From the IMG/VR virus record IMGVR_UViG_3300037307_000289: a stretch of DNA of 64,000 nt, one strand, 5' to 3'. This stretch comes from a virus. Position 1 is the stretch's first letter; the number at the start of each line of letters is the position of its first letter. The notes beneath the pieces are model-generated. The model searched no databases, had not been told where the DNA came from, and was given only the letters and a program-made list of their open reading frames with translations. This document shows positions 1 to 39,282 of the stretch, in pieces. A program made the translations under genes and the position numbers.

Positions 1-168
1 TTCTATGACGAGGATATATCTAAGTTATGCCCTTGTCGAACTTGCATACTTAAATCTCGTTGTTCACAGGTATGTGAAGAAAGATGGAGTCTATATGCAT
101 ACAGGAATGAAACATATGAAGATTATATTAAAAGAGATAATGCCTGGAAGAGTACAAGAAGGAGATAA
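1..168 (+). CDS. 5'-truncated member of the Cys-rich CPC-CLVK mini-protein family (reads ...LCPCRTCILKSRCSQVCEE..., stop at 166-168)
   Basis: Frame 1 from the window edge gives FYDEDISKLCPCRTCILKSRCSQVCEERW..RRR*. This carries the family core C-P-C-x2-C-[IL]-L-K-x2-C-x3-C. The listed ORF 5..193 is in another frame and is probably spurious. Confidence 0.5.
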   Translation, partial: FYDEDISKLCPCRTCILKSRCSQVCEERWSLYAYRNETYEDYIKRDNAWKSTRRR

Positions 169-874
169 GATCTTTCTTTCTTTCTTTGGATAAGGTCCTG
201 GATTCATTATTAGTAAGATAAATGCAAAATCTTTTTTGAACTGAAAAATAGAACTTATCCACATCTCCAATATGATCTGGAAACCGAGCACGTACCTATA
301 CCATGTCTTTTCTTTATATGAGCACTACTTTGTCCTCTTCTGGACGCGCAGCATCTAATTTATTAAAATTTTAGACCGCCCCAAAAAGCGCTCATATGGT
401 GAAGGGAGGGGTCGCCCCTTATGCCCCTATATAACCCCTATACACTATATATATCAATAACTGCATAGAGACGATATCTTGGTCGCCGGATTGAAGGATC
501 CCCAACTGGCATGGACTGGGATAGTCGTCTGTATATGATTGGGATCCATCGGGGATGAAGGGCGCGCCTCATCCCTGCACCCCGGAGGGCGTCCGTGATT
601 ATGATGCCGGACGCCCTCCCCTTAACTATCTTCCAACTCAGTGCCCATCTTCATTTTTTAAAGGAGAGTGTTACATCATTATTAATAAGCTGACTACCCA
701 CAAAAACCGACTTCTAGTACCGAACGGGTTAGCGGCACTATTGAGTATCGGGCGGCATAAAGCTAAAGAGTTTGAGCTATATCCTCTACGGCCTGGAGGG
801 TTGTGCTCCTCATATGCTATTCAGTAAATGCTGATCAGATGCTTCATCAGAGGGTTCCCCGTTAGGGAATTCCC

Positions 875-910
875 AGGCGGGTTTTCTCCTTTCTCCCGCC
901 TGTTTTTTTT
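875..910 (+). terminator. rho-independent terminator: 7-bp GC stem aggcggg/cccgcct, 13-nt loop, then GTTTTTTTT
   Basis: Stem 875-881 pairs with 895-901. A T-tract at 902-910 follows. It closes the GC-rich structured island. Confidence 0.6.
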
Positions 911-983
911 GCTTAAATAGGATGCCGCCCTGGATACTAGATGAGGATGCTATCTATAGGATTTGGAACAAATAAAAAATAAA

Positions 984-1056
984 GTACAGTACAGTACAGT
1001 ACAGTACAGTACAGTACAGTACAGTACAGTACAGTACAGTACAGTACAGTACAGTA
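984..1056. repeat. perfect pentanucleotide microsatellite (GTACA)n, about 14.6 copies
   Basis: Direct reading shows gtaca/acagt reiterated without interruption. It ends 17 nt before the ATG of the 1073 ORF. Confidence 0.95.
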
Positions 1057-1072
1057 GAAAAGGAAGCAACCT

Positions 1073-1318
1073 ATGAAACGTGAAAAGATGGTATCTATAT
1101 ATTTCACTAAAGAAGAGCATGAAGCATTAATGAAGCATATCAATAAGAATACAAATGGATTCAGTCCTAGTGTATCAACATATGTGCGTTCTGTTATTCT
1201 TAAAATGATAAACTCTGAGAAACCCACCGAGACAGCTCCCCCTATAGCGCCCACAGAAAATAAACCAGAAGTCAAATCAAATCAAACGCTTAACTTAGGC
1301 GACCTCTTTAATTTATAA
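1073..1318 (+). CDS. small ribbon-helix-helix (CopG/MobC-like) DNA-binding protein, 81 aa
   Basis: The N-terminus KMVSIYFTKEEHEALMKHI matches the RHH beta-strand plus helix pattern (x-V-x-V-x-L-T-x-E-E-x-E-x-L). An RBS AAAGGAAG lies 8 nt upstream. Confidence 0.5.
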   Translation: MKREKMVSIYFTKEEHEALMKHINKNTNGFSPSVSTYVRSVILKMINSEKPTETAPPIAPTENKPEVKSNQTLNLGDLFNL

Positions 1319-1350
1319 CTAGATTCCGAGCATAATAGAACCAAAAAAAT

Positions 1351-1382
1351 AACCGGGAGAGAATATCCTGCGGTTATTTTTT
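1351..1382 (+). terminator. weak hairpin (aaccg..cggtt) followed by ATTTTTT
   Basis: A short imperfect stem is followed by a T-run just downstream of the RHH gene stop. Confidence 0.3.
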
Positions 1383-1531
1383 GACTGCTATGCCAGAGGG
1401 GAATCTTTCTCACTGGATTACTAGGGACAACCTCTCAGTTTCCATCTCAACTAGGTTGACTAAGTCCAGCTAGGAGTCCAATTTGTTATCTAAACGCACT
1501 AATATGCTATCTAAATGTTTCTACCCTCTCA

Positions 1532-1951
1532 TCATTTAAGATAACAAACTTCATCTAACACCCTGATATAGTTATTCATTAACCCGGGAAGCTTAATAAA
1601 CTTCTCTGGAGCTCTCTTCCCGCGTAAAATCCCTTTCTTTCTCTCACCTGCACGTTTTTCTATCTTATTATCTAACCTAACTAATATAGGATTGTTTCTA
1701 GCAATTAACCCTCTATAAACATCACATCTTATTTTATCTCTTTCGACATCCACTTCACGAATATAATTTGAACGATTATATGCTGCCTTTTCAAATTCTT
1801 CACATACTTGATCGCATGTCACTTTAACTAAGCATTTATGACATGGGCATTTTGGTAGTGTATAGCATCTGATACTTTGAATAGAAATACAATATGGTAC
1901 ATATTGACTGTTATATCTTAGTGATTTACAACCAATGCAAGCTTCAGACAT
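1532..1951 (-). CDS. CPC-CLVK family Cys-rich mini-protein with C-terminal extension (139 aa)
   Basis: N-terminal CIGCKSL; core KCPCHKCLVKVTCDQVC. Confidence 0.7.
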   Translation of the reverse strand: MSEACIGCKSLRYNSQYVPYCISIQSIRCYTLPKCPCHKCLVKVTCDQVCEEFEKAAYNRSNYIREVDVERDKIRCDVYRGLIARNNPILVRLDNKIEKRAGERKKGILRGKRAPEKFIKLPGLMNNYIRVLDEVCYLK

Positions 1952-2189
1952 TGTCTATCTTAGTTCCTTGTCTAACGTAATCTCTTATCATTATTAGTTT
2001 AAAGTTTTTATCATACTCTGGACAAGCATCTACACATACTCCTTTTATTAAACAAGTCATGCAAGGACATCTTGGTATTACTATTCCTTGTTCATCTTCT
2101 CTCATGTAATGCATACAATATAAAGAGGTCTCTGCACTTATGGTATTGGTATATGTTTTACATCCTTTACAACTTGTTTTCTCCATCAC
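1944..2189 (-). CDS. CPC-CLVK family Cys-rich mini-protein (81 aa)
   Basis: N-terminal CKGCKTY; core RCPCMTCLIKGVCVDAC. Confidence 0.7.
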   Translation of the reverse strand: MMEKTSCKGCKTYTNTISAETSLYCMHYMREDEQGIVIPRCPCMTCLIKGVCVDACPEYDKNFKLIMIRDYVRQGTKIDNV

Positions 2190-2399
2190 TTTTCTTTTTC
2201 CTTATTGATATTAGAAAATCCTCACATGCTACTTTACACATTGTCTTAACTAGACATGTATTACTTTAATGAATGGGACCATATGAATCTGCATAGTTGC
2301 AGTAAAATAGCTTGTTTCATATGCTTCCCTATTGCTTATTCTATCTTTACTTTCACACGGTTTACAATAAAAGATTTGGTTACAAATTGAGCATGGCAT
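2190..2399 (-). pseudogene. frameshifted family member: N-terminal MPCSICNQIFYCKPCES (49 aa) in one frame, NTCLVKTMCKVACEDF in another
   Basis: Manual translation of the minus strand. The ATG at 2397-2399 opens a 49-aa fragment with the MPCxxC..KPC N-terminus. The CLVK..C core continues in a -1/+2 frame behind a stop. The CPC triplet is absent. Confidence 0.45.
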
Positions 2400-2405
2400 A
2401 ACCTA

Positions 2406-2639
2406 TCAATCTCTCACTATTCTTTCAATGTAGTTTTCACATATATCTCTACACATTACCTTTACTAAGCAATTAACACAAGGGCACTTATAGTTTAATC
2501 TATATATTTTTCTTATCATTTTATCTGGGTAATAGTGATTTGATGTAGTTGAGTTTAATAAGATTTTTACTTTACCTCTTACTAATTTTGTATTACATGG
2601 TTTAACTTTGAAATGTTTATAACAGTGATTGCATGGCAT
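2406..2639 (-). CDS. CPC-CLVK family mini-protein, MPC subtype (77 aa)
   Basis: MPCNHCYKHFKVKPCN; KCPCVNCLVKVMCRDIC. Confidence 0.7.
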   Translation of the reverse strand: MPCNHCYKHFKVKPCNTKLVRGKVKILLNSTTSNHYYPDKMIRKIYRLNYKCPCVNCLVKVMCRDICENYIERIVRD

Positions 2640-2837
2640 TATAATTTCTCTTGTATTTTTTTAAATTCTTCGCACGCTCGTTCACACATGGACTTAACTA
2701 TGCACTTTCTACATGGGCAATCTGGTATTTTATCCCACATATAAAAAACTTTACAAGTTCCTACACATATTGATTCCTTTATTTCCAGCGCCTTCAAGAA
2801 TCTTTAAAGAGTGACAACCTTCACATTCATTATTCAT
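2639..2837 (-). pseudogene. frameshifted family member: MNNECEGCHSL.. (27 aa) then DCPCRKCIVKSMCERAC in the +1 frame
   Basis: Manual translation. The ATG overlaps the upstream gene's stop (ATGA). The N-terminal CEGC motif and the C-terminal CPC core lie in different frames with no in-frame ATG for the second half. Confidence 0.45.
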
Positions 2838-3112
2838 ATATCCTCTGGTTTAATTTGTCTGCAAAAGTGATACCAAGGAGAACATTGTAATCTCCCTTGT
2901 TCACACATCATTTTAACTAAGCAATCTTTACATGGGCATTCATCTCGTAACCTATAATATCTAGTTTCAAATGTTTCTTTAGTTAAACTCTTTAGAATAT
3001 ATCTTTCTGGTTCATGAGTATAAAACATATCTCCTTTTTTACCATTATAAGGAATACCACTACATGGTCTATTCTCATATACTAGATCACATATTTTACA
3101 AGGCATACCCAA
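2834..3112 (-). CDS. CPC-CLVK family mini-protein, MPC subtype (92 aa)
   Basis: MGMPCKICDLVYENRPC; ECPCKDCLVKMMC. Confidence 0.7.
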   Translation of the reverse strand: MGMPCKICDLVYENRPCSGIPYNGKKGDMFYTHEPERYILKSLTKETFETRYYRLRDECPCKDCLVKMMCEQGRLQCSPWYHFCRQIKPEDI

Positions 3113-3118
3113 TATCCC

Positions 3119-3361
3119 CTAATTAAATTTTAAACCTTCTACTTTAGATAGAAATTCTAAATACTCAGGGCAGTTTAATCTTTTATCTCCACATGCCATT
3201 TTAACCAAACAATTACTACATACACACTGTTCATTTAATAGATTAAAGTAGTTAGTTAGATATTTCTTATTATATATTTCACAAAGTTTATCTATCATTT
3301 TAATTTCTTTACTCTTACATGGGGGGTTCTCATACATTGACTCACAAATATTACAAGGCAC
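3119..3361 (-). CDS. CPC-CLVK family mini-protein, MPC subtype (80 aa)
   Basis: MPCNICESMYENPPC; CVCSNCLVKMAC. Confidence 0.7.
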   Translation of the reverse strand: MPCNICESMYENPPCKSKEIKMIDKLCEIYNKKYLTNYFNLLNEQCVCSNCLVKMACGDKRLNCPEYLEFLSKVEGLKFN

Positions 3362-3668
3362 GTTTTATCACTCTCCATTTACCATTAGAAATATTTTTAA
3401 TAGTAATCACTGAAGTTCCTATTCTTTTTCTCTCTCCGGCACTTAACCCTACAGTATAAGATTCTAATACATCTACTCTTCGTTTTAGATATTCTATAAA
3501 TGGCATACACATAGAGTTGCAGGTAACCTTAACTAAGCATTCTCTACATGGGCATGTTACCATAAACCTAATATATACATTGGTAAACTTACATGAGTTT
3601 AAATTATTTGAATCTTTTACTAGTGAGTTACATCCATTACATTCACTTATTCCTTCTGATCTATTCAT
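3351..3668 (-). CDS. CPC-CLVK family mini-protein (105 aa)
   Basis: CNGCNSL; TCPCRECLVKVTCNSMC. Confidence 0.7.
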   Translation of the reverse strand: MNRSEGISECNGCNSLVKDSNNLNSCKFTNVYIRFMVTCPCRECLVKVTCNSMCMPFIEYLKRRVDVLESYTVGLSAGERKRIGTSVITIKNISNGKWRVIKRAL

Positions 3669-3925
3669 CTTAGTAAAGGTCCTATTAAGAGGTCTTCGTC
3701 CTTAACATTAAGTACTCCATCATAGAATACCATTTTTACTTCTTCAATTTGTTTAGCTATTTCTTCACATCCTTTATGTGAATTACATATAGCTCTAACC
3801 AAACATTTTTTACATGGGCATTTAATTCTTATATCTATATATTTTTCTCTAACTACTTTATGTGCCTCAACAAATGAGCAAGGTCTAACACCAACATGTA
3901 TTCGTTTACACTCGTCACATATCAT
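3665..3925 (-). CDS. CPC-CLVK family mini-protein (86 aa)
   Basis: MICDECKRIH; KCPCKKCLVRAIC. Confidence 0.7.
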   Translation of the reverse strand: MICDECKRIHVGVRPCSFVEAHKVVREKYIDIRIKCPCKKCLVRAICNSHKGCEEIAKQIEEVKMVFYDGVLNVKDEDLLIGPLLR

Positions 3926-4173
3926 TATTTATTCCTTTGTTTGGTAAGCATTTTAATTATATAAGTTCTTTTAATTTTATCTTTATATATTCCTATCTGG
4001 TGTGCCTCATAAAATAAATCACATGGGGTGCTACAAACTGGTTTAACCAGACAATTTTGGCAAGGGCAATCAATGATTTTTTCTGGAACATTTTGGAATA
4101 CTATTTGTTTACATAATTCTTTTTTTAATGAATAGCTATATACAAATGAATTACACCCACTACATTTATTCAT
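3925..4173 (-). CDS. CPC-CLVK family mini-protein (82 aa)
   Basis: CSGCNSF; DCPCQNCLVKPVCSTPC. Confidence 0.7.
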   Translation of the reverse strand: MNKCSGCNSFVYSYSLKKELCKQIVFQNVPEKIIDCPCQNCLVKPVCSTPCDLFYEAHQIGIYKDKIKRTYIIKMLTKQRNK

Positions 4174-4433
4174 CTAGTCCTGACCCATGTTTCAATTCTA
4201 TTTTCAAACTCACCACAGAATTCTTGGCACATTACTTTAATAAGACATTCCTGGCAAGGGCAATATCCGTGTAGTATTCCGTGGATTGTAACTAATTTTC
4301 TACATCCATCATACCCTTGAGATGAATATGTTCTTTCAGTTAGAATAGTATCTGAACTTATTCTAAGTTCGCATGGTAAAATACTATAATATTCTTTACA
4401 TGTTTGACATGGCATTAGATCACCTTGAACCAC
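4170..4433 (-). CDS. CPC-CLVK family mini-protein, MPC subtype (87 aa)
   Basis: MPCQTCKEYYSILPC; YCPCQECLIKVMCQEFC. Confidence 0.7.
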   Translation of the reverse strand: MVQGDLMPCQTCKEYYSILPCELRISSDTILTERTYSSQGYDGCRKLVTIHGILHGYCPCQECLIKVMCQEFCGEFENRIETWVRTR

Positions 4434-4780
4434 AGTTTACATTCATAATCAATTGTTAACTCAGTTCCTTTCTTTATATCATTCAAAGCGTATGCTCTCA
4501 TTAGTTTATTTCTATAGTCTCGTTTTATTCTAACATTAGAATTGTTACTATGATTTAATAGATTTATAGCTCCGAATGAAATAGCATCTTGTTTTTTAGT
4601 CCAATACATAGGATAGTTATTAAAAAATGACTCTTTTTTTACATCATTAAATCCTATTGGTGACACAGCATTAATAACTATTAGCTCATCTTTTTTAATA
4701 TTCTGTGCTGCAACTATACAAAATCCTTTTTTATTGTGAAGTGAAATTTCTATTTTTCCGTCACTGAAAAGTTTTTTCAT
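4415..4780 (-). CDS. minimal SET-domain protein lysine methyltransferase (vSET-like, 121 aa)
   Basis: AISFGAINLLNHSNNSNVR matches the SET NHS(C)xPN pocket motif. KGTELTIDYECKLW matches the E-E-L-T-x-D-Y post-SET motif. Size and layout resemble chlorovirus vSET (119 aa). Recalled from memory, not searched. Confidence 0.75.
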   Translation of the reverse strand: MKKLFSDGKIEISLHNKKGFCIVAAQNIKKDELIVINAVSPIGFNDVKKESFFNNYPMYWTKKQDAISFGAINLLNHSNNSNVRIKRDYRNKLMRAYALNDIKKGTELTIDYECKLWFKVI

Positions 4781-4967
4781 TTTTCTCTCCGAAGAAATAT
4801 TTTGTTTCTATTTCAATTGCACTATCTAATACATCACATGGCTCACTACACATTCCTTTTATAAGACAGATTTTACAGGCGCAATCTTTTATAAGTTTTT
4901 CTAACCTATAACATTTGTTTCTAATGTTATAGTAATAGCATCCTTGACATCCATCAAACTTGTCCAC
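4761..4967 (-). CDS. CPC-CLVK family mini-protein (68 aa)
   Basis: DGCQGC; DCACKICLIKGMCSEPC. Confidence 0.7.
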   Translation of the reverse strand: MDKFDGCQGCYYYNIRNKCYRLEKLIKDCACKICLIKGMCSEPCDVLDSAIEIETKYFFGEKNEKTFQ

Positions 4968-5187
4968 TTTTCTTAGTCCTTGCAGTAATTATTTTAAAGT
5001 TATCACAAGCTGTAATACAAATACCTTTAATAAGACAAGTATTGCATGGGCAAGATTCAATCTCAATAACATCTAGATAAAAAGGATATAGTGATTTACA
5101 ATAATATCTTTTTTTATTTTCATGGTATGCTAAAGATTTACACCCTTCACATTTTTCGGTGTTCATAGGCTGCCTTTTGTAATTCAC
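4954..5187 (-). CDS. CPC-CLVK family mini-protein (77 aa)
   Basis: CEGCKSL; SCPCNTCLIKGICITAC. Confidence 0.7.
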   Translation of the reverse strand: MNYKRQPMNTEKCEGCKSLAYHENKKRYYCKSLYPFYLDVIEIESCPCNTCLIKGICITACDNFKIITARTKKSGQV

Positions 5188-5398
5188 TACATCTTTGTGT
5201 ACATATACCTTTAACTAAGCATTTTCCACAAGGGCAATCTTTAATAAATGATTTTCCCCATATTGCATAGACACATTCTAATATTCTTTTATTTTTCCTA
5301 TCTATCATTACTAGTTTACCTAAATTTTTACATCCTCTACAATGCTTTGGGAAGTTTATATTTCTACATTTGGATTCACTCATTTTAGAAATCATCAT
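5147..5398 (-). CDS. CPC-CLVK family mini-protein (83 aa)
   Basis: CRGCKNL; DCPCGKCLVKGICTQRC. Confidence 0.7.
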   Translation of the reverse strand: MMISKMSESKCRNINFPKHCRGCKNLGKLVMIDRKNKRILECVYAIWGKSFIKDCPCGKCLVKGICTQRCSELQKAAYEHRKM

Positions 5399-5576
5399 CT
5401 ATATCTCTGGTAATGTGATGAAACTTATCGCACCCTTCTTCGCAGACAACTTTAATTAAACAATCTCTGCATGGGCACTCTTGCGCTTTAAACATTTCTA
5501 ATACTTTACAATCTATACCCATATGAAACATAGTACATCCTTCGCAGTCTTTTAGGTATCTCTGTACATGTGTCAT
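5385..5576 (-). CDS. CPC-CLVK family mini-protein (63 aa)
   Basis: CEGCTMF; ECPCRDCLIKVVCEEGC. Confidence 0.7.
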   Translation of the reverse strand: MTHVQRYLKDCEGCTMFHMGIDCKVLEMFKAQECPCRDCLIKVVCEEGCDKFHHITRDIDDDF

Positions 5577-5773
5577 AATAAATTTTCTCTAACTCCTTTC
5601 TTTATTAGTTCATCATATTCTTCACAAGTATTTGTACATACCATCTTTAATAGACATATTTGACATGGGCATTCTTCTGCTTTAACTATACATAATATTT
5701 TGCATCCAACTTGATATTTAACTTCCTGTTCCCCATAGATAAAACACAGTTCACATTCTTTATTGTAATTCAT
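5573..5773 (-). CDS. CPC-CLVK family mini-protein (66 aa)
   Basis: CELCFIY; ECPCQICLLKMVCTNTC. Confidence 0.7.
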   Translation of the reverse strand: MNYNKECELCFIYGEQEVKYQVGCKILCIVKAEECPCQICLLKMVCTNTCEEYDELIKKGVRENLL

Positions 5774-6033
5774 TTTAATCCAACCACTTGTTTATACTCT
5801 TCACACATTTGATCTATTTTACTTGAACAGCACTGCATCTTAACTAAACAGTTTTTGCATGGGCAATATGCATTAAGTTTTTTATATGCCTGAACATAAG
5901 ATGGAATATCAATTATATTGTAGGGTACACTAGTTATATATTTACTGAAAATACCAATAGTAACAGAAGCTTCATCTCGTGGATAATCACATGGACTAAT
6001 CTTAAGAGTATTTTGACAAACTAAACATGGCAT
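5770..6033 (-). CDS. CPC-CLVK family mini-protein, MPC subtype (87 aa)
   Basis: MPCLVCQNTLKISPC; YCPCKNCLVKMQCC. Confidence 0.7.
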   Translation of the reverse strand: MPCLVCQNTLKISPCDYPRDEASVTIGIFSKYITSVPYNIIDIPSYVQAYKKLNAYCPCKNCLVKMQCCSSKIDQMCEEYKQVVGLK

Positions 6034-6036
6034 TGG

Positions 6037-6270
6037 TCACACATGAAATTTTAGAGTCATTCTTTTTATCGCGTTAGTTATTTCAGTTTCAAAGTTTTCT
6101 AAATCTTCACATCTAGCTTGGCAAACTCCTTTTATAATACATTTCTTACATGGGCAATCCTTATATCTAGCTCCTAATGCACAGCATTTTGTATTGAGTT
6201 TTGGGTTGTTAGAGAGACACCCATCACATCCTTCGTAATTTTTCAAGGAGTTTTTCAGTTCTATACGCAT
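6037..6270 (-). CDS. CPC-CLVK family mini-protein (77 aa)
   Basis: YEGCDGC; DCPCKKCIIKGVCQARC. Confidence 0.7.
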   Translation of the reverse strand: MRIELKNSLKNYEGCDGCLSNNPKLNTKCCALGARYKDCPCKKCIIKGVCQARCEDLENFETEITNAIKRMTLKFHV

Positions 6271-6502
6271 CAGTTTCCCTTTTCATTATCATTTCTCTTC
6301 TGTGAAGAAAAAACTCACTGCATTTTTTATTACATGTTACCTTAACTAAACAATCTTTACATACACAGTTAGGAATAAAGTTTAGATCAGATATATTGAA
6401 TAGACATTTATAGTAACCAGGAATCTCTCCGTTATCAACAAATGATCTACACCCTTTACATACTACTAGTTCAGGTTTGTATTCTGATTTGGTGTTCTTC
6501 AT
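6224..6502 (-). CDS. CPC-CLVK family mini-protein (92 aa)
   Basis: CKGCRSF; NCVCKDCLVKVTCNKKC. Confidence 0.65.
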   Translation of the reverse strand: MKNTKSEYKPELVVCKGCRSFVDNGEIPGYYKCLFNISDLNFIPNCVCKDCLVKVTCNKKCSEFFLHRREMIMKRETDAYRTEKLLEKLRRM

Positions 6503-6807
6503 GATCTAAATTTTTCTTTTATTTTTTTAATACCATTATCCTGTAACTTAATAAATACTCTATTTGATGCTAATAGTTCTATATTTAAATATTTTTCACA
6601 TGAAAACACCGAAGGTGGGATACATGACATCTTAACTAAACAATCAATACAAGGGCATTTAACCATCAATATTCTATAAAGTTCTTCAGCAAAATCAAGA
6701 GTTGAATTACCTATAGTTTTATCTACTACCTTATAATTTTCTATAAAATCTAGATTTGTTTTACATGGTTTAATAATATAGTTATCTTGACAAATTTGAC
6801 ATGGCAT
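6499..6807 (-). CDS. CPC-CLVK family mini-protein, MPC subtype (102 aa)
   Basis: MPCQICQDNYIIKPC; KCPCIDCLVKMSC. Confidence 0.7.
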   Translation of the reverse strand: MPCQICQDNYIIKPCKTNLDFIENYKVVDKTIGNSTLDFAEELYRILMVKCPCIDCLVKMSCIPPSVFSCEKYLNIELLASNRVFIKLQDNGIKKIKEKFRS

Positions 6808-7097
6808 TAATTTATTTTACTCCCTTTTACTGTATTTTCAAGAAAATCTTTGTATTTACTACATTTATATTTTGAATAATCACATACTATTTTAACTAGA
6901 CATTCTCTACATGGGCAATCTTTATAAGATTCAGTATAAAATGAAGAAACAAAATCAATCACTTTAGATTTCTTTCCTCTTTTACTAACAAAAAATGTTC
7001 TTTCTTTTATATTCTTAATTCCAGATGGTTCTATTTTTCCTTCTATACTTTCACATGGCTTAACATAAAATACATTTATACAACCTTGGCATGGCAT
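6807..7097 (-). CDS. CPC-CLVK family mini-protein, MPC subtype (96 aa)
   Basis: MPCQGCINVFYVKPC; DCPCRECLVKIVC. Confidence 0.7.
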   Translation of the reverse strand: MPCQGCINVFYVKPCESIEGKIEPSGIKNIKERTFFVSKRGKKSKVIDFVSSFYTESYKDCPCRECLVKIVCDYSKYKCSKYKDFLENTVKGSKIN

Positions 7098-7099
7098 TA

Positions 7100-7306
7100 T
7101 TATCCTCCTGCTAACTCAAACAGTTTTTCTGTCAGTAATTTTTCATCTATATAGAATTTAACTTGTTGCAAAACAAAAATATATTCTTTACAATACTCAC
7201 TACAATTAATTTTTACTAAACAATTTTTACAAGGGCACAATAATTTATTTTGTTTCAGATTGCCTTTAAGAGAGCATATTGTTTCTATTTTGCATCCTTT
7301 ACATAT
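7100..7306 (-). pseudogene. family member lacking a canonical ATG: NICKGCKIETIC...LLCPCKNCLVKINCSEYC...*
   Basis: Manual minus-strand translation of the apparent gap between 7097 and 7299. The open frame holds both family motifs, but the first in-frame sense codon is ATA where other members have ATG. Either a non-canonical start or an inactivated copy. Confidence 0.4.
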
Positions 7307-7622
7307 ATTTCCTCAATTCTTTCTTAGAAAACATTCCAGTAATTTCATCATAATAGAGAACTAAATAACGTTCTATTATATTTCTATATTCTTCACATCT
7401 CTTAGGATATTCTACATTACATGTTGCTTTTACTAAACAATTTCTACATGGGCAGTTGAAATGTAAATCCTTATATACTTTAGTATGAAACACGATAGCA
7501 TTATCACTGTATAATATTGGTCTGAACTCTTTTATTTTTGTAACATCTTTCTCTATTAATATTCCAGTTTCATGTTCACATGGTCTAACTGTATAACTTA
7601 TATCACACGCTGGGCATGGCAT
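7299..7622 (-). CDS. CPC-CLVK family mini-protein, MPC subtype (107 aa)
   Basis: MPCPACDISYTVRPC; NCPCRNCLVKATC. Confidence 0.7.
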   Translation of the reverse strand: MPCPACDISYTVRPCEHETGILIEKDVTKIKEFRPILYSDNAIVFHTKVYKDLHFNCPCRNCLVKATCNVEYPKRCEEYRNIIERYLVLYYDEITGMFSKKELRKYM

Positions 7623-7624
7623 CT

Positions 7625-7897
7625 TTACACCTTAAAGACTGTTTTTAAAACTTCAATTGCTGTCATCCAAGTTGTTCCACTCATAGATGGTTTTAATATT
7701 AATTCTATATAATCTTCACATAAATTATCAGTTTTACACATACTTTTCACTAAACAATCTTTACAAGGGCATGCCTTATTTAATTTTGAGAATGAAAATC
7801 TTACAAATGAATAAGAAACTTGAGGAGTAAAAAGTTTACCACTCTTATATTCACAAGGTTTAAAATTATAAAAATGATCGCAAAATATACAAGGCAT
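7625..7897 (-). CDS. CPC-CLVK family mini-protein, MPC subtype (90 aa)
   Basis: MPCIFCDHFYNFKPC; ACPCKDCLVKSMC. Confidence 0.7.
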   Translation of the reverse strand: MPCIFCDHFYNFKPCEYKSGKLFTPQVSYSFVRFSFSKLNKACPCKDCLVKSMCKTDNLCEDYIELILKPSMSGTTWMTAIEVLKTVFKV

Positions 7898-7905
7898 CGT
7901 TACAC

Positions 7906-8127
7906 CTATTCCTCGTCGTAAACTAGCTTTGATCTAAAATAATTTTCTAGAACATCACAATTATTTTCCTGTGTACAAATCATTTTAACTAAACATGTTC
8001 TACATGGGCATTCAGCTACAAATCTTTTGAATCCTCTCACTGAAAACTTCTCTAATATCTCTTGATCTGTATATTCATGGCACTGTTTTGTATTATCAAA
8101 TCTTAATGCACATTTAACACAGCTCAT
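7906..8127 (-). CDS. CPC-CLVK family mini-protein (73 aa)
   Basis: MSCVKCALRF; ECPCRTCLVKMIC. Confidence 0.7.
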   Translation of the reverse strand: MSCVKCALRFDNTKQCHEYTDQEILEKFSVRGFKRFVAECPCRTCLVKMICTQENNCDVLENYFRSKLVYDEE

Positions 8128-8384
8128 TTCTTTCCTTTCTTAATTAGATCTAGTTCATCAATTAAGATCCAGTTAAATTCAATAGAGAATTGTTTAGTTT
8201 CTATCTTACTTTTAGAGTCTTGGAACAACTTCCGGAATTCGCCTCTCCAGAAGTTGTCCCTCCTCTCTATATATTCATGACAAGAATCAGAACACATAAC
8301 TTTAACTACACAATACATGCAAGGGCAGTTATCTAACGGCGGGCACTTTTCTATTTTTAAACATCCCTGACATTGCTCTTTCAT
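8124..8384 (-). CDS. CPC-CLVK family mini-protein (86 aa)
   Basis: CQGCLKIEKC; NCPCMYCVVKVMCSDSC. Confidence 0.65.
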   Translation of the reverse strand: MKEQCQGCLKIEKCPPLDNCPCMYCVVKVMCSDSCHEYIERRDNFWRGEFRKLFQDSKSKIETKQFSIEFNWILIDELDLIKKGKK

Positions 8385-8583
8385 TTTTTAACTGCTCCCT
8401 CAGTCTTATTCTATGAAATTCATCACAATATTCTTCACATGTTACTTTAACTATGCAATTTTTACATGGACACTTTAACATATCTTTATATTGTATGTAG
8501 CATTTAGAAACTCTAGCTTCAGTTATACACCCTTTACAAGTCTTTCTGAATCTAGGTTTTGTTTTTTTCTTTCCAGACTTCAT
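8329..8583 (-). CDS. CPC-CLVK family mini-protein (84 aa)
   Basis: CKGCITE; KCPCKNCIVKVTCEEYC. Confidence 0.65.
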   Translation of the reverse strand: MKSGKKKTKPRFRKTCKGCITEARVSKCYIQYKDMLKCPCKNCIVKVTCEEYCDEFHRIRLREQLKNERAMSGMFKNRKVPAVR

Positions 8584-8749
8584 TTATTTCCTTCAATGAG
8601 TAGTAGTATTTTTCACAATCTCTATCACATGTAACTTTGACTAGACATAATCTACAGACGCATACCTCAATACCTTCATTAAATACGTAGAACACTCTAC
8701 ATAGTTTTTTCTTTTTATTGTATTTTCTACACCCAAGACAGTCGTTCAT
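8552..8749 (-). CDS. CPC-CLVK family mini-protein (65 aa)
   Basis: CLGCRKY; CVCRLCLVKVTCDRDC. Confidence 0.65.
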   Translation of the reverse strand: MNDCLGCRKYNKKKKLCRVFYVFNEGIEVCVCRLCLVKVTCDRDCEKYYYSLKEINEVWKEKNKT

Positions 8750-9936
8750 TCTTTCATTGATATTACTGGTTTTATTCTGTCAATTATTTCTGCAGTTGGG
8801 TCTATTGCTGCTTCAATTACTTTAGGATCTTTATATGCACCCTTTAATTCATCAGTTGGTAACCTGGAAAAATAGATTCCTTTCTCTTTCATACGGTCGC
8901 TTGCTTCTTTATTAGATAGATTCTCATTAGCCCATTTTCTTGAACCTATACGGCCAGCGCCATGAGGGGCAGAATAGTTCCATTCTCGATTACTTTTACC
9001 TTTACATAGAAGTATTCCGTCCTCCATATTAAATGGAATAATAATTTCCTGATCTTTATATGCAGAGATTGCACCTTTTCTAATAATAAAATCTCTAAAA
9101 TCAACATAGTTATGAACTGAACTAACAATTCTATTTGATACTATACTTTTATTAAGTTCTTTCTTTAATACTTTCATAATTTCTTCCATCATGACTATTC
9201 TATTTACTAGTGCATATGTTTGAGCAATCAGAAGATCAACTAGATAATCAAACATATCTGCTCCCTCTAAATATGACAGAGGATGTTTTCCAGCTTTCTT
9301 CTGATGATAATTTGCACTTTTCAATCCATATTGTCTTGACCCTGAATGAATTGTAATCCAGGTATTCCCAGTAGTTTGTGATTCACCAACTTCAATAAAA
9401 TGATTTCCACCACCAAGAGTTCCTAATGATTTAACTACCCTGTCATAAGCTATACCAAACTTATCACATCTTTCTTTTATAGAATCAACACTTATAAATG
9501 GGGTTATATGTTTAGTTTGAAACTTACTATCATATTTTTCAGTGAATGTGACTAACTGAGGATTTACTAATGCTAAAAGTAATCCTATTCTATATTCAAT
9601 AAAATCCTTATTTACATCTGTACCAAACGGTATAACACTACGGATTAACCCGTCTATGCGCTCAGGAGAGAGATCTTTAAGTGTGCCTTGTCCTATATCA
9701 AATGATAACATTCCACATCCCTTATCGACTCCTATTACGTTTGGGATCACCTTGTTAGGCAACTCCATTGTAAATCCAATGACAGCTCCCTTTCCTGCAT
9801 GAGTATCAGGCATAATTGAAACTGGATTTGTAAATGCTTCATGACTAATAAACTCATATATTTGTTTCATTGTTTCTTCATCAATATTATCAATCAATAC
9901 TAAAGCAGTTGTGTATTTGCCTCTTACTTTAAACAT
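8746..9936 (-). CDS. rtcB: RtcB-family RNA 3'-phosphate/tRNA-splicing ligase (396 aa)
   Basis: Signature RtcB motifs are present: IMPDTHAGKG, GVDKGCGM, GGGNHFIEV and a C-terminal HNYV. Length is typical for the family. Confidence 0.9.
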   Translation of the reverse strand: MFKVRGKYTTALVLIDNIDEETMKQIYEFISHEAFTNPVSIMPDTHAGKGAVIGFTMELPNKVIPNVIGVDKGCGMLSFDIGQGTLKDLSPERIDGLIRSVIPFGTDVNKDFIEYRIGLLLALVNPQLVTFTEKYDSKFQTKHITPFISVDSIKERCDKFGIAYDRVVKSLGTLGGGNHFIEVGESQTTGNTWITIHSGSRQYGLKSANYHQKKAGKHPLSYLEGADMFDYLVDLLIAQTYALVNRIVMMEEIMKVLKKELNKSIVSNRIVSSVHNYVDFRDFIIRKGAISAYKDQEIIIPFNMEDGILLCKGKSNREWNYSAPHGAGRIGSRKWANENLSNKEASDRMKEKGIYFSRLPTDELKGAYKDPKVIEAAIDPTAEIIDRIKPVISMKE

Positions 9937-10196
9937 TACTTTCCTCTCTTTCTTCTTTTTATACTGATATAAGTAACATCGTTTAGAGTTAAATCTTTGT
10001 GCATCTTCCCCATTTTATCCTTTTCTTTACATCTATTCTTACACATTGGTTTGACCACACATGTTTTACATGGGCAATCTTTAAAATATTTCTTAATCAT
10101 CCAACATGCAACTAATAATTCTCCTATAGACCACAGATCTGGGATCTTACATCCTGAGCATTCTTTGTTTGGATTTATTTTTAAGTTCTGCCGCAT
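9936..10196 (-). CDS. CPC-CLVK family mini-protein (86 aa)
   Basis: CSGCKIP; DCPCKTCVVKPMCKNRC. Confidence 0.7.
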   Translation of the reverse strand: MRQNLKINPNKECSGCKIPDLWSIGELLVACWMIKKYFKDCPCKTCVVKPMCKNRCKEKDKMGKMHKDLTLNDVTYISIKRRKRGK

Positions 10197-10389
10197 ATCC
10201 TATTGGGTTACTCCTTAGAAATCTAAAGTCATCACACGAAACATCACACATAGTAATAATCAAACATTTTATACATGGGCATATAGGTCTATTTTCTTTT
10301 GATACCGGGCAAAGTTTGGTTCCATTAGTTTTTATTTGTTGAATATAAGCGGAACAACTTTTACACTCTTCCAGAAATGAACTTTCCAT
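10147..10389 (-). CDS. CPC-CLVK family mini-protein, divergent core (80 aa); first gene of the leftward array
   Basis: CKSCSAY; ICPCIKCLIITMCDVSC. Confidence 0.65.
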   Translation of the reverse strand: MESSFLEECKSCSAYIQQIKTNGTKLCPVSKENRPICPCIKCLIITMCDVSCDDFRFLRSNPIGYAAELKNKSKQRMLRM

Positions 10390-10416
10390 TTAATAACCTC
10401 ACACATGTATTTATAT

Positions 10417-10434
10417 GGGATCATTTATGATCCC
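10417..10434. promoter_or_regulatory. perfect 18-bp palindrome GGGATCATTTATGATCCC in the divergent intergenic region
   Basis: 8-bp arms with a 2-bp centre lie between the start of the minus-strand array (10389) and the plus-strand ORF. Candidate operator. Confidence 0.3.
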
Positions 10435-10511
10435 TTCGAGAAGTCTATTTGAACTATATATATTAATATTTGAAATCATTGAATTTAACTCTAACTTTAG
10501 GAGGGATAACT

Positions 10512-10841
10512 ATGTTTAAAGCTTTCGATTTGGGAAAACCGTCAGATATTTCTATCTGTGGAAAGTGTAGATTTATTAACAAAAATACCTGTATGAATCC
10601 ATTTTCGTTTTCCTTTCAGAGCAGGGTTCTCGACGGGTATATTTCCTGCACGAAGTTCAGCAGAAGACCTGAGGAAAAACAGGATTGCTCTAAGTGTCAT
10701 CTGGGGGGAGACTGTCCGATGACTCCAGATACCTGTCCCGGAGCAATCGACAAGAAACAGGTTGAGATGGTTATGCAGGACAGCTCTCCGATGGGGGAAA
10801 TACTCAGGTCTATCCTACTTGACTTGAAGCCGAATCGGTAG
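10512..10841 (+). CDS. Cys-rich hypothetical protein (about 109 aa from the internal Met), GC-richer than its surroundings
   Basis: A strong RBS AGGAGGG lies 6 nt before the internal ATG at 10512 (MFKAFDLGKPSD..). The track ORF starts at 10470 without an RBS. Multiple Cys (CGKC, CSKCHLGGDCP). Codon GC is visibly higher than in neighbouring genes. Confidence 0.4.
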   Translation: MFKAFDLGKPSDISICGKCRFINKNTCMNPFSFSFQSRVLDGYISCTKFSRRPEEKQDCSKCHLGGDCPMTPDTCPGAIDKKQVEMVMQDSSPMGEILRSILLDLKPNR

Positions 10842-10849
10842 GAAATCAG

Positions 10850-10876
10850 GGAGTAAGGACTAGAAATCCTTACTCC
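10850..10876. other. perfect 10-bp stem hairpin (ggagtaagga / tccttactcc, 7-nt loop) between convergent genes
   Basis: Read directly, immediately after the TAG stop at 10839-10841. No U-tract on either strand. Confidence 0.4.
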
Positions 10877-10886
10877 ATGACAAGTA

Positions 10887-11210
10887 TTAGTGAAATGATA
10901 AATAATCTCTTGGTGGGAATTCCCTTTCAATGAAAGGATTCTCTATTAATAAACAAATACCATCAGTATTTTTTCCTTGTTCTTTCAATCTTTTTATAAT
11001 TTCTTTTAGGGTTGGTTCATAGTTTGATCTAAAGTAAGAACAATCCCCAACAATTTTTTTTGCTATTGAATGATTATGATAAGAAGATTCCCCAGTCATT
11101 TTTTCTTGCTCATATCTAGCTCTACAACATGGAAAAGTTATACAACTTCTACATAAACAATCTGGATCTTTTCTAGCACCCAAGAAATACCTCGCAATAG
11201 TTTTTACCAA
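10887..11210 (-). CDS. hypothetical Cys-containing protein (107 aa)
   Basis: ORF only. CLCRSC..PCC motif. No family recognised. Confidence 0.4.
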   Translation of the reverse strand: MVKTIARYFLGARKDPDCLCRSCITFPCCRARYEQEKMTGESSYHNHSIAKKIVGDCSYFRSNYEPTLKEIIKRLKEQGKNTDGICLLIENPFIEREFPPRDYLSFH

Positions 11211-11511
11211 AGTCTGTTAAGGTAATATCTCCATCCATATTAACTTCAATCATTCTCTTAAGTTTTAATGTCCCTAATACAATTTCAAGTTGTTTTGGTC
11301 TCCAATCCAAAGTAGCTAACAAAACATCGTCAGCAATAGCACCAGTCTTTTTGCACTGCTCATAAATAGCTTTTAATGCTTTAGCTTCGTTTGGTTCAGC
11401 TTGACCATCTTCACATACTTTCTTGGTTCTCCTGTTCAACCAAGTAATGAATCCTATAACCAAAATTAAAAAAATACCACCTATAACTAACAACAATACT
11501 GCCTCTGCCAT
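11173..11511 (-). CDS. hypothetical membrane-anchored protein (112 aa), N-terminal TM helix
   Basis: The N-terminal hydrophobic segment LLLVIGGIFLILVIGFITWL is followed by a soluble domain. Confidence 0.45.
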   Translation of the reverse strand: MAEAVLLLVIGGIFLILVIGFITWLNRRTKKVCEDGQAEPNEAKALKAIYEQCKKTGAIADDVLLATLDWRPKQLEIVLGTLKLKRMIEVNMDGDITLTDFGKNYCEVFLGC

Positions 11512-11521
11512 TGTTCCTCCT

Positions 11522-11785
11522 TCACGGATAGAAGTTTAGTTGCTTGTCTAATTCTGAGTTCACTTTGATTATTTCAAATAATGTTAGTGAATCTTTTTTT
11601 GTTACACCACAATAAGGACATTCAAAATCTGATTTTAAAGCAGTTAAACCTTTTTGAATAGCTAGCTCAAAAAATATTCCACAGTTTGGGCATCTCAATA
11701 CAATTTTATACTGATTAGGTCCAACCTCGACTGTTTTGAATAATCTATTCTTTGATGCTGCGGGAGGTCTTCCAGACGGGCTCAT
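11522..11785 (-). CDS. zinc-ribbon hypothetical protein (87 aa)
   Basis: CPNC..(x19)..CPYC pair. Confidence 0.45.
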   Translation of the reverse strand: MSPSGRPPAASKNRLFKTVEVGPNQYKIVLRCPNCGIFFELAIQKGLTALKSDFECPYCGVTKKDSLTLFEIIKVNSELDKQLNFYP

Positions 11786-11844
11786 CTTTCTCCTTTCGAT
11801 TTGAAAAAATAAGTTCTCTTCTTCAAATATTAATATATATAGTT

Positions 11845-12345
11845 CTATTCAACCAAACCATCATCAACTGCCATACTATAAGCTACTGATAATGGAGTCA
11901 TTGCACCGAGATGATATTCGTCTCTTGCAATATTTGATCCAACAAAACGACAATCCTTATCATGCCCATATCTCGCTATCAACAGTATATTATCAACTGG
12001 AGCGAGAGAACTTCTGTAATACATATCATAGACATCCGGGCCAACCTCTGTGGTGCCTAAGAAGTTCAGGGAAGGTTCTGGATTAAAATAACATTGTATT
12101 CCTGCTTCTATTAAGCTTTCATCTTCAAAGATTTTAAACTTACACTTTGGAAAATAAATATCAGGGAGTTCAGGAAATTCTATTTTTAATTCCTTTTTAA
12201 TAATTTCATTTGTTTCTCTTATAATAATGTATTTGCTTAAAGGATCCCAAATTTGAGTCATATATATTTCAACTTTTTCTTGAACGGATTCTAGTAAATA
12301 GTCTCTAGCTTTAATAAATAAACTAACAAGTTCTTCATCATCCAT
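11845..12345 (-). CDS. hypothetical acidic protein (166 aa)
   Basis: ORF with consistent AT-rich codon usage in the operon context. Confidence 0.45.
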   Translation of the reverse strand: MDDEELVSLFIKARDYLLESVQEKVEIYMTQIWDPLSKYIIIRETNEIIKKELKIEFPELPDIYFPKCKFKIFEDESLIEAGIQCYFNPEPSLNFLGTTEVGPDVYDMYYRSSLAPVDNILLIARYGHDKDCRFVGSNIARDEYHLGAMTPLSVAYSMAVDDGLVE

Positions 12346-12399
12346 TGCTATATCTCCGTCAATGGTAGGATTAGAGGGAGGGTTTCCCCTCCCTCATAA

Positions 12400-12879
12400 T
12401 TAGTTTTCTTTGATTAGGTCAGCTGCAATTAAAACTTCAACAACACTTGGTTCAATTGATTGTGGTAAATCTTCAAATGAAATTTTAAATGGATTTGATA
12501 GTGTAAATTCTTCATCAACAATCTTTTCAAATTCTTTAATCTGTGCTTCTCTTTGTTCAATAGCTGACTTAAACTTTTTCTTTAGTTTATTCATTTCTTT
12601 TTCAAATGCATCAGCCTTCGCTACAATAACAAATGAGTTATTTTGAATCATTGGTTTTCCAGCAGAATCTTTATCTGAATACTCTTGAGCTAGTTTGACT
12701 CTCTCAAGTTCAAAATCTAGAAAATCTTGATCTGGTTTTCTTGCCTCATCCAATGCGTCAACTTCCGACTTAATAGCAATTCTATTCTTAGCTAAAAAAT
12801 AACTAAACTTAACTCCATACTTCATGTCACCAAAACGATTAAACACCTCATTCAAACGCAATACATCTAATTTCTTCAT
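12400..12879 (-). CDS. hypothetical coiled-coil protein (159 aa)
   Basis: ORF with a Lys/Glu-rich helical region. Confidence 0.45.
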   Translation of the reverse strand: MKKLDVLRLNEVFNRFGDMKYGVKFSYFLAKNRIAIKSEVDALDEARKPDQDFLDFELERVKLAQEYSDKDSAGKPMIQNNSFVIVAKADAFEKEMNKLKKKFKSAIEQREAQIKEFEKIVDEEFTLSNPFKISFEDLPQSIEPSVVEVLIAADLIKEN

Positions 12880-13410: not shown

Positions 13411-13411
13411 T

Positions 13412-14740: not shown

Positions 14741-14756
14741 ATACTAAACCTTTCAT

Positions 14757-15209: not shown

Positions 15210-15239
15210 TTTTAGATTCCTCTTTTAATAAATTAGTTA

Positions 15240-16224: not shown

Positions 16225-16225
16225 A

Positions 16226-18453: not shown

Positions 18454-18465
18454 TTTTAGTTCCTC

Positions 18466-27918: not shown

Positions 27919-27920
27919 AT

Positions 27921-30088: not shown

Positions 30089-30090
30089 TT

Positions 30091-31647: not shown

Positions 31648-31696
31648 TAAATCAGTCCTCCTTTATAGTTCTGCACTAAATAAAACATAACCACCA

Positions 31697-32728: not shown

Positions 32729-32743
32729 ACTTTTATCTCCAAA

Positions 32744-33835: not shown

Positions 33836-33847
33836 TACTAATCCTCT

Positions 33848-39262: not shown

Positions 39263-39282
39263 ATCAGGTAGCCTCTTAGGGA

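Follow-up and report, generated by a model that had tools for sequence, protein, structure and literature searches.

The 64,000-nucleotide (nt) stretch of the IMG/VR virus record IMGVR_UViG_3300037307_000289 considered here, referred to below as the window, contains a mega-array of about 30 tandem genes for cysteine-rich mini-proteins built on one domain of ~60 amino acids (aa) with eight cysteines. The feature is real and highly non-random, and its genes are real protein-coding paralogues in a tailed-phage genome. The family to which they belong is large, absent from every family library searched, a member of no known family tested and apparently undescribed. With slightly less than even confidence, we read the array as a co-transcribed repertoire of metal-stabilised mini-binders that would be used in host interaction; what the sequences show directly is the genes with their common scaffold, how widespread the family is, its habit of forming arrays, the orthology, the difference in evolutionary rate and the turnover between strains, and metal binding, co-transcription, binder function and the host as target are each inferred.

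Translation of the window in all six frames yields 32 matches to the core pattern C.C..C[LIVM][LIVM]., whereas 200 block-wise shuffles of the window give a mean of 0.195 matches and a maximum of 3. Twenty-nine of the matches lie in co-oriented, head-to-tail open reading frames (ORFs) of the minus strand at 1532-10389, alongside one fragment that lacks the core, in agreement with an earlier note on this DNA that had described about 30 tandem minus-strand paralogues. Inspection of the ORFs also confirmed its tally of ~27 intact genes, encoding 63-139 aa, and 3 disrupted ones: an MPC-type N-terminus of 49 aa without a core (2250-2399), and two copies whose N-terminus is truncated (7100-7240) or degenerate (2639-2797). 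The span of 1-10389 that the note gave was too wide and includes ~1.4 kb (169-1531) outside the array. The three remaining matches are all on the plus strand. Two are isolated genes, at 56891-57109 (72 aa, P0035) and 62667-62948 (93 aa, core CHCADCLVK, P0004), where the note had placed copies at 56.9 and 62.7 kb; the third is the 3' part of a gene cut at its 5' end by the window edge (1-168). This edge copy was correctly reported as partial, but its strand was not, as it runs opposite to the array and converges on it. The tandem array makes up about 14% of the window. Most intact copies carry exactly eight cysteines, the modal number, with a full range of 7-11 where the note gave 7-9.

The array is tightly packed. 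Among its 31 junctions, 22 are overlaps, comprising 7 of the ATGA and 5 of the TAATG stop-start type, both noticed earlier, and 10 longer ones (8-56 nt); the other 9 are gaps of 2-60 nt. Shine-Dalgarno-like motifs resembling AGGAG precede most starts by 5-10 nt, and no terminator-like site was found on the array strand in 1-12500, where a scan for promoters and terminators stayed at background level. Two non-family genes are embedded in the array, one with a SET domain (4415-4780) and one for the RNA ligase RtcB (8746-9936), and the array as a whole forms the distal end of a ~50-kb block of minus-strand genes. These ~30 old paralogues are probably expressed as one polycistronic unit.

Two alignments, one of 31 window copies (A1) and one of 126 distant members (A4), define a domain of ~60 aa with eight invariant or near-invariant cysteines, so that the conserved cysteine core described earlier holds well beyond the window. 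Its pattern is C-x-[G]-C, x9-12, C, a variable loop, and C-P-C-x2-C-L-[VI]-K-x-[M]-C-x3-C-x2-[FY]. The cysteines are split three and five, with a CxxC-x9-12-C half, an inter-half loop of 8-45 aa and a CxCxxC-LVK-xx-C-xxx-C half. Column entropy is ~0 at the cysteines, 0.4-1.0 at the P, L, V and K positions and ~3 bits, or near random, elsewhere; the only invariant or near-invariant columns are the eight cysteines plus a glycine, a proline and a lysine, the last of these being the LVK lysine, the sole conserved basic residue in both alignments. No conserved His, Asp or Asn column occurs in either alignment, and an enzyme is unlikely for that reason. The two N-terminal subtypes recognised earlier are both present: 13 window copies are of an MPC-x2-C-x8-PC-like type with a loop of ~35-45 aa, 14 are of a CxGC type with a short loop, and 3 fit neither. 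CxGC proteins outnumber MPC proteins 140 to 20 among 161 proteins that are mostly best database matches. Isoelectric points (pI) run from 4.1 to 9.9, with a median of 8.5 in the window copies and neutral to acidic averages in the arrays of another contig, L012; given this range, the surfaces of the proteins are diverse. Many copies end in Lys/Arg-rich tails such as ISIKRRKRGK and KMLTKQRNK, and no signal peptide or membrane segment was noticed when the sequences were read by eye. Metallothioneins were considered and set aside, as the family has conserved hydrophobic positions and a cysteine content of only ~10%.

The family had not been recognised in the earlier note, and database searches agree. 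Ten window copies gave no significant match in Pfam, PHROGs v4 or NCBIfam, ten distant members gave none in Pfam or PHROGs, and a mixed set gave none in PADLOC. When all 126 members of the distant alignment were scanned with Pfam, no family matched more than two of them among the matches listed. A family profile search of PDB sequences returned only one spurious match (E=0.39), and 50,697 GenBank phage records yielded no match by megablast of the array or by tblastn of two members. Relatives were few, 14-17 per run, in a word-indexed search for homologues. AlphaFold2 reached a predicted local distance difference test (pLDDT) score of only 51.6 with 39 sequences and 59.9 with 126; the models are unreliable, and fold searches based on them are uninformative for that reason.

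The window belongs to a large tailed phage from a metagenome of anoxic-sediment type, on a contig of 64,787 bp, with tail-fibre and collagen-like proteins at 24.8-48.5 kb, among them one of 2,337 aa; no capsid or terminase gene was found in the 64 kb. Beyond it, an exhaustive profile search of 1.84 billion representatives recovered 2,612 clusters of 50% identity at E<=1e-3. Those listed are all 55-164 aa long, two-domain proteins among them. Metagenome contigs scanned with a degenerate DNA pattern gave at least 120 loci with 491 copies in total, 87 of them with at least two copies and 36 with at least five; their GC content is 27-40%. All 64 loci with at least three copies are fully co-oriented, with a median spacing of 253 nt. 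The 656 copies whose length was compiled have a median of 75 aa and a maximum of 192 aa, and extensions read by eye revealed no recurring fused partner. Arrays recur in other contigs, with 32 copies in the related phage L007, where RtcB occupies the corresponding position, 29 in L012, 25 in L018 (an 88.9-kb IMG/VR contig), 19 in L013 and at least 13 in L020/L021, a contig binned in a Thermoplasmatales metagenome-assembled genome (MAG). The L018 array adjoins a 557-aa ORF that reads, by eye, like a large terminase. Most array-bearing contigs have only this family in common with the window, and the source contigs bear sediment, seep or vent sample or isolate names, from which habitat was judged. 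The family is associated with phage-like contigs, and on the evidence of these loci and contigs the tandem co-oriented mega-array is its usual layout in several phage lineages, not a peculiarity of the window genome.

Two further observations concern the reach of the family. Contigs L020-L024 (DAOVGR010000034.1, DAOVGR010000022.1 and JAAOXY010000082.1) carry family genes and are binned in archaeal MAGs (Thermoplasmatales and Aenigmatarchaeota); they are either mis-binned phage contigs or members of a virus clade infecting archaea. Proteins of 116-143 aa with a four-cysteine or shorter remnant of the core, such as SPCDYCLVKPMCHDGC and TPCYNCIVLGMCKGK, are encoded in L012 (771-1139, 8203-8619 and 8691-9119) and L023 (671-1018). 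The remnant is N-terminal or, in L023, begins ~27 residues into the protein, which suggests that the C-terminal half of the motif can function as an independent module.

Window paralogues share only 21-42% mutual identity, and 18 of them have reciprocal-best 1:1 orthologues in L007 that are largely colinear and 34-58% identical. For comparison, identity between the two phages is 75-84% for RtcB and three further flanking genes and 51% for a flanking radical SAM gene. The proportion of nonsynonymous differences (pN) is below that of synonymous ones (pS) in 18/18 orthologue pairs. Pooled Nei-Gojobori estimates over these pairs give a synonymous divergence (dS) of 1.30, which is saturated, a nonsynonymous divergence (dN) of 0.47 and a ratio (omega) of ~0.36; by region, omega is 0.11 in the core and 0.47 in the flanks. 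RtcB and its three neighbours show dN of 0.11-0.20 and omega of 0.09-0.34 at similar dS. The family copies therefore evolve ~3x faster than neighbouring genes, under net purifying selection, and because their orthologues are 1:1 and largely colinear, with pN < pS throughout, the paralogues are old and individually maintained. With this low mutual identity and 18 orthologues, the array is not a recent expansion. Nor do these figures support the strong diversifying selection suggested in the earlier note; what the comparison reveals is faster evolution and turnover between strains, although saturated dS puts site-wise selection beyond the reach of the 18 pairs.

This turnover is visible among close relatives. 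Contigs L001-L003 are 99.97-100% identical to the window, and strain L004 shows 99% identity along the 9.5 kb that align, with 70 of its 86 substitutions confined to two array genes (2639-3112); outside this one replaced segment, single-nucleotide polymorphisms are too few for a strain-level dN/dS. A 10-bp difference, present as extra bases in L004, restores the truncated 46-aa copy at 7100-7240 as an intact gene of 69 aa, and the degenerate 52-aa copy at 2639-2797, which has a TTG start, corresponds to an intact 66-aa CxGC gene there. Conversely, 324 bp of the window (2265-2588) are absent from L004, leaving a chimeric mini-gene. The last array gene, at 1532-1951, encodes 139 aa and is an in-frame deletion chimera of a CxGC-type cysteine domain and the C-terminal tail of the terminal paralogue. 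In L004 this domain and the tail belong to different genes, separated by another paralogue (the orthologue, of 77 aa, precedes two more paralogues), and the same tail occurs in gene 32 of the L007 array (P0010). Deletion, segment replacement and chimera formation thus make the array a hotspot of remodelling. Truncated, fragmented or chimeric copies that differ between 99%-identical strains are what a decaying or selfish repeat, without function for the phage, might leave behind. This explanation is highly improbable, given pN < pS in every pair, a core omega of 0.11, 1:1 orthologues kept at synonymous-site saturation, eight cysteines invariant across 2,612 clusters in several phage lineages and the presence of ribosome-binding-site motifs. 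A non-coding repeat was also rejected.

Eight invariant cysteines within ~60 aa make metal or cluster binding a reasonable expectation. Since so short a chain is constrained only at these cysteines and a few hydrophobic positions, the domain is probably held together by metal, as general knowledge of metalloproteins would suggest. The cysteines would hold two metal centres, either two Zn(Cys)4 sites or one or two [4Fe-4S] clusters, and the split of three and five implies that one ligand crosses between the halves. Fe-S and Zn are roughly equally likely as cofactors. A distinct proposal is that the proteins are stand-alone SPASM-like or ferredoxin-like Fe-S proteins with two [4Fe-4S] clusters that would carry electrons, serve the phage's radical SAM enzymes as auxiliary-cluster modules or sense redox state. 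Within the core lies CX2CX5CX3C, the motif of the SPASM/twitch auxiliary cluster. A remote cysteine followed by CX2CX5C is the [4Fe-4S] ligand pattern of WhiB, EndoIII/MutY and AddB, and the family core matches it. The three-plus-five split suits 3 + 1 cubane ligation, the size matches that of clostridial ferredoxins (eight cysteines in ~55 aa), four radical-SAM-like genes lie within 13 kb, and the sediment, seep and vent names of the source contigs are in keeping with Fe-S chemistry. The radical SAM/SPASM protein encoded at 13412-14740 contains CQTCLIKHLCCGQC, the site to which hhalign assigns the family core; however, the probability is only 20.7% over 15 columns, and a second window radical SAM protein gave nothing. 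Of eight family proteins scanned, one matches the SPASM model TIGR04085, at no better than E=0.76, neither Fer4 nor SPASM families are among the Pfam matches listed for the 126 members, and no PDB sequence is matched although the PDB holds solved SPASM enzymes. Members of the rSAM442 family, to which the maturase gene beside the window array belongs, lie beside arrays in only 3 of ~130 loci (the window, L007 and L063), and electron transfer would hardly call for thirty hypervariable copies. Overall, we consider such an electron-transfer, auxiliary or sensing role unlikely, and, with no profile evidence for homology, the family is not filed under SPASM.

Basic residues bear on a different possibility, namely that the proteins are small Zn-finger regulators that bind nucleic acids, each paralogue with its own DNA or RNA site, and that reprogramme host or phage expression. 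CxxC knuckles are typical of zinc ribbons, the variable loop and tail could read sequence, and the median pI of 8.5 and the Lys/Arg-rich tails of many window copies would suit such contacts. Yet pI spans 4.1-9.9 and drifts to neutral or acidic in the L012 arrays, only the LVK lysine is conserved among basic residues, and Pfam scans returned no zinc-finger or helix-turn-helix family, leaving this option quite unlikely.

The genes upstream of the array invite comparison with systems for ribosomally synthesised and post-translationally modified peptides (RiPPs), in which the mini-proteins would be multiple ranthipeptide-, sactipeptide- or SCIFF-like substrates of radical SAM/SPASM maturases and would be exported by a major facilitator superfamily (MFS) protein. 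Two maturase-like genes are nearby (the best NCBIfam match is the PapB family at 8.5e-14, far below its cut-off), two more radical-SAM-like genes and an MFS transporter complete the set at 13.4-24.8 kb, and the prochlorosins provide a precedent for RiPP loci that encode many hypervariable precursor peptides. Each maturase nevertheless has its own adjacent candidate substrate (14757-15209 and 15240-15785). In the family proteins the conserved cysteine region is central and flanked on both sides by variable sequence, which is not a leader-plus-core layout, and two copies lie 45-50 kb away on the other strand. Most arrays elsewhere lack a radical SAM neighbour, with none near the L012, L013 and L018 arrays within the stretches examined, and no NCBIfam precursor model matches. 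RiPP precursors were rejected as a class on the lack of a precursor-model match, of a leader-plus-core layout and of consistent maturase adjacency, and we regard this explanation as very improbable.

The mini-binder reading is preferred because an invariant scaffold carries a hypervariable loop, tail and charge; because of the size, co-orientation and translational coupling of the array; and because its neighbours for RNA repair and protein modification accompany fast, strain-variable evolution. Recurrent neighbours of arrays are an ATP-dependent DNA ligase (10 loci), a SET-domain protein (7 loci plus the window), a metallophosphoesterase (6), RtcB (5) and a CCA-adding tRNA nucleotidyltransferase (5). 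Phages use RNA-repair and protein-modification genes against host responses, as in RtcB-type repair of nuclease-cut tRNA. Under this reading, each gene would yield a stand-alone cytoplasmic mini-protein on a common ~60-aa scaffold whose remaining positions, including the inter-half loop and the C-terminal tail, are free to vary. Each paralogue would present its own target surface and act during infection on factors of the host or of competing elements, in takeover or counter-defence, with deletion, segment replacement and chimera formation remodelling the repertoire. The putative counter-defence or takeover role is suggested only by the neighbours (RtcB, SET and the CCA-adding enzyme) together with the anatomy of a scaffold with a variable surface.

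Several points weigh against the mini-binder reading. Expression, metal binding and targets are predictions, and with omega below 1 the data do not establish positive selection. Copies retained 1:1 over long times could as readily have fixed, specialised roles as take part in an arms race, and the breakage of several copies in one strain or another marks individual copies as dispensable. AlphaFold2 models at pLDDT 52-60 and their fold searches returned nothing meaningful, and guilt by association is weak when the commonest neighbours belong to families of unknown function (a ~190-aa family at 13 loci and the orf166 family at 12).

A bolder version of the mini-binder reading holds that phages with sediment-type names carry a 'library' of 20-30 Fe-S (SPASM-like) or Zn mini-proteins on one rigid eight-cysteine scaffold, which would amount to an unrecognised multigene arsenal for counter-defence or host manipulation, with a fold lacking any described relative, and to a prokaryotic counterpart of the multigene families of giant eukaryotic viruses. 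Taken as a whole, this is rather unlikely. If the mini-binder inference itself holds, a family of at least 2,600 clusters now invisible to Pfam, PHROGs, NCBIfam and PADLOC would receive its first description, and phages would prove to keep very large tandem multigene families (20-32 copies), a strategy so far tied mainly to giant eukaryotic viruses. An eight-cysteine scaffold of ~60 aa that tolerates near-random sequence would also be a natural mini-binder framework and offer a new entry point for host targets and anti-defence activities in uncultivated sediment-type systems.

In transcription order, all genes of the array being on the minus strand and all family assignments resting on ORF, core pattern and alignment unless stated otherwise, the array opens with an 80-aa gene at 10147-10389 (core CPCIKCLIITMC). 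Just upstream of it, also on the minus strand, a 107-aa protein containing CLCRSCITFPCC (10887-11210) is a probable divergent relative, its L007 orthologue (56% identity) having a canonical core. The second gene, 9936-10196 (86 aa, CxGC type; L007 orthologue 50% identical), adjoins RtcB at 8746-9936 (Pfam RtcB 1.1e-52; PHROG tRNA splicing ligase 2.9e-105), which occupies the same position in L007. Three CxGC genes follow at 8552-8749 (65 aa), 8329-8583 (84 aa) and 8124-8384 (86 aa), and then an MSC/MPC gene at 7906-8127 (73 aa) and MPC genes at 7625-7897 (90 aa, P0001) and 7299-7622 (107 aa; L007 orthologue 55% identical). Past the truncated copy at 7100-7240, two MPC genes at 6807-7097 (96 aa) and 6499-6807 (102 aa) give way to two CxGC genes at 6224-6502 (92 aa) and 6037-6270 (77 aa), an MPC gene at 5770-6033 (87 aa) and a 66-aa gene at 5573-5773. 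The shortest intact copy, a minimal CxGC-type domain of 63 aa at 5385-5576, served as the structure-prediction query. It is followed by CxGC genes at 5147-5398 (83 aa) and 4954-5187 (70-77 aa) and by a 68-aa gene with the core CACKICLIK at 4761-4967.

The SET-domain gene inserted next (4415-4780, 121 aa; Pfam SET 4.5e-13) has no tblastn match in L007 and is absent from its array. Beyond it lie an MPC gene at 4170-4433 (81-87 aa), a CxGC gene at 3925-4173 (82 aa), an 86-aa gene at 3665-3925, a CxGC gene at 3351-3668 (105 aa) and a GTG-initiated MPC gene at 3119-3361 (80 aa, core CVCSNCLVK). The MPC gene at 2834-3112 (90-92 aa) falls within the segment most divergent from L004. The degenerate copy at 2639-2797, an MPC gene at 2406-2639 (77 aa), the core-less fragment at 2250-2399 (recognised from its ORF and the junction survey) and a CxGC gene at 1944-2189 (80-81 aa) lead to the chimera at 1532-1951, which was resolved by comparison with L004 and L007.

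The neighbours most often shared between arrays and the window are orf166 (11845-12345, minus strand, 166 aa), found at 12 loci, and orf159 (12400-12879, minus strand, 159 aa), found at 7. Both are 80-84% identical between the window and L007, their L007 orthologues have no Pfam match, and they may be functionally tied to the array. Two other small cysteine-rich proteins are encoded at the border of the array: a 123-aa protein with a CGKC...CSKC...C arrangement (10470-10841), the only plus-strand gene of the region and 61% identical in L007, and an 87-aa minus-strand protein with CPNCG...CPYCG knuckles resembling those of zinc ribbons (11522-11785), 74% identical in L007. Just past the other end of the array, a plus-strand gene at 1073-1318 encodes an 81-aa ribbon-helix-helix protein of CopG/NikA-like type (RHH_7 6.4e-05 and NikA-like 1.5e-04, both below cut-offs). 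A perfect (AGTAC)x14.8 microsatellite occupies 983-1056, and L001 and L002, independent assemblies of this same phage, end inside it at window position 1027. Between the array end and the edge copy, 300-950 is GC-richer and contains long hairpin-forming sequences (e.g. 575-620); it has no convincing gene and no Rfam match, and may serve as an origin or packaging site or encode a structured RNA. In the window as a whole, Rfam gave no real match and no tRNA was found.

Immediately upstream of the array, 12904-24812 on the minus strand holds a biosynthetic-looking cluster that looks like a phage-encoded RiPP pathway. Its two radical SAM/SPASM genes of peptide-maturase type (13412-14740 and 16226-17584) each adjoin a repeat protein and a partner of ~160 aa, the repeat proteins (14757-15209 and 15240-15785) being rich in Ser, Tyr, His and Asn with PHYSS/HYNS-like repeats. 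Further radical-SAM-like genes with CxxxCxxC lie at 21493-22665 and 22626-23807, three paralogues with HxGH-like motifs at 17584-18453, 19828-20724 and 20697-21500, and the MFS transporter at 23808-24812. A second paralogue expansion follows, in which the products of 26851-27918, 27921-29090, 30091-31647, 31697-32728 and 33848-34999 match the C-terminal part of PHROG 4492 tail fibres; ORFs at 29003-30088 and 32744-33835 lie among them and are similar in size. The expansion as a whole covers 24858-26144, 26851-34999 and 35015-48472 and includes collagen-like fibre proteins of 1,415 and 2,337 aa alongside these paralogues, and the only match of the tail region by megablast against the 50,697 phage records is a collagen-like patch in a 735-kb uncultured phage. 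The tail-fibre expansion suggests many receptor-binding proteins. The plus strand at 52082-63975 forms an accessory module with a protein-kinase-like gene (60413-62089, Pkinase 6e-08) and, judged by eye only, apparent NADAR-, SPFH-, RNase H-, isochorismatase-, vWA-, metallophosphoesterase-, PP2C-, MazG- and YqeY-like genes. Two of these, the SPFH-like and the phosphoesterase gene, have counterparts with 65-70% identity in L022, a contig binned in a Thermoplasmatales MAG.

Among known systems, the closest likeness in motif is to the SPASM/twitch auxiliary [4Fe-4S] domain of radical SAM enzymes (TIGR04085, PF13186), which is defined by CX2CX5CX3C with a further upstream cysteine. The family shares this motif, invariant in the 31 and 126 aligned copies, as well as the upstream cysteine and a total of 7-8 cysteines in a short stretch, and C-Q-T-C-L-I-K-H-L-C in the window SPASM protein parallels C-x-x-C-L-[VI]-K-x-x-C in the family. 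Unlike SPASM domains, the family proteins are stand-alone, with no radical SAM (CX3CX2C) core in 656 copies; their upstream half reads CxGC-x9-12-C in place of CX9-15GX4C, their eighth cysteine directly precedes the motif (CxC) where that of SPASM follows it, and the TIGR04085 and hhalign values given above are not significant. Clostridial 2[4Fe-4S] ferredoxins are likewise ~55 aa long with eight cysteines; they carry CxxCxxCxxxCP twice, whereas that spacing is absent from the family alignments. The Pfam scan of ten window copies gave one weak Fer4_4 match (E=0.33, one copy) among Fer4 families.

In actinobacteria and actinophages, the WhiB-like (Wbl) proteins, some of them phage-encoded, coordinate [4Fe-4S] and attach to transcription factors of the host. 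They are also small (<130 aa), stand-alone and multi-paralogue, with a C-Xn-C-X2-C-X5-C arrangement, and offer a plausible functional analogy. Wbl proteins, however, have four cysteines rather than eight, the present family occurs in low-GC contigs with sediment-pointing names rather than in actinophages, and Pfam Whib (PF02467) had no match in scans of family proteins, including the matches listed for the 126 members. Wbl genes are not known to form arrays of 20-30 copies.

No description of the family was found in the literature searched, where the nearest analogue is a set of cysteine-rich PacI/HNH-like proteins in a hypervariable region of the Opia viruses of Atabeyarchaeia from wetland soil. 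These are encoded by up to six genes, are 140-200 aa long and have the residues (H, DR, CxxCN) of a beta-beta-alpha-metal HNH fold (PMC11529989). Common to both are runs of small cysteine-rich proteins, two Cys4 sets and a region that varies between near-identical genotypes. The present family differs in its ~60-aa domain, its arrays of 20-30 copies and its lack of an invariant His, Asn or Asp. HNH or PacI-like nucleases were accordingly rejected as an identity for the family, which has no conserved His/Asn/Asp and no HNH match in Pfam scans.

In genome organisation, the array is closest to the tandem multigene families of large eukaryotic DNA viruses, such as MGF110 of African swine fever virus (ASFV) and the terminal host-range arrays of poxviruses. 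In both settings, small and partly cysteine-rich paralogues lie co-oriented and in tandem in a variable genome region, copy number shifts between strains by deletion or recombination (as between the window and L004), and a role in host interaction is presumed. The phage proteins differ in having a prokaryotic host and a cytoplasmic location, and a sequence relationship is neither seen nor expected. From what is generally known of these viruses, the likeness would be one of genome architecture only. The array thus resembles eukaryotic-virus multigene families in architecture and Fe-S mini-domains in motif.

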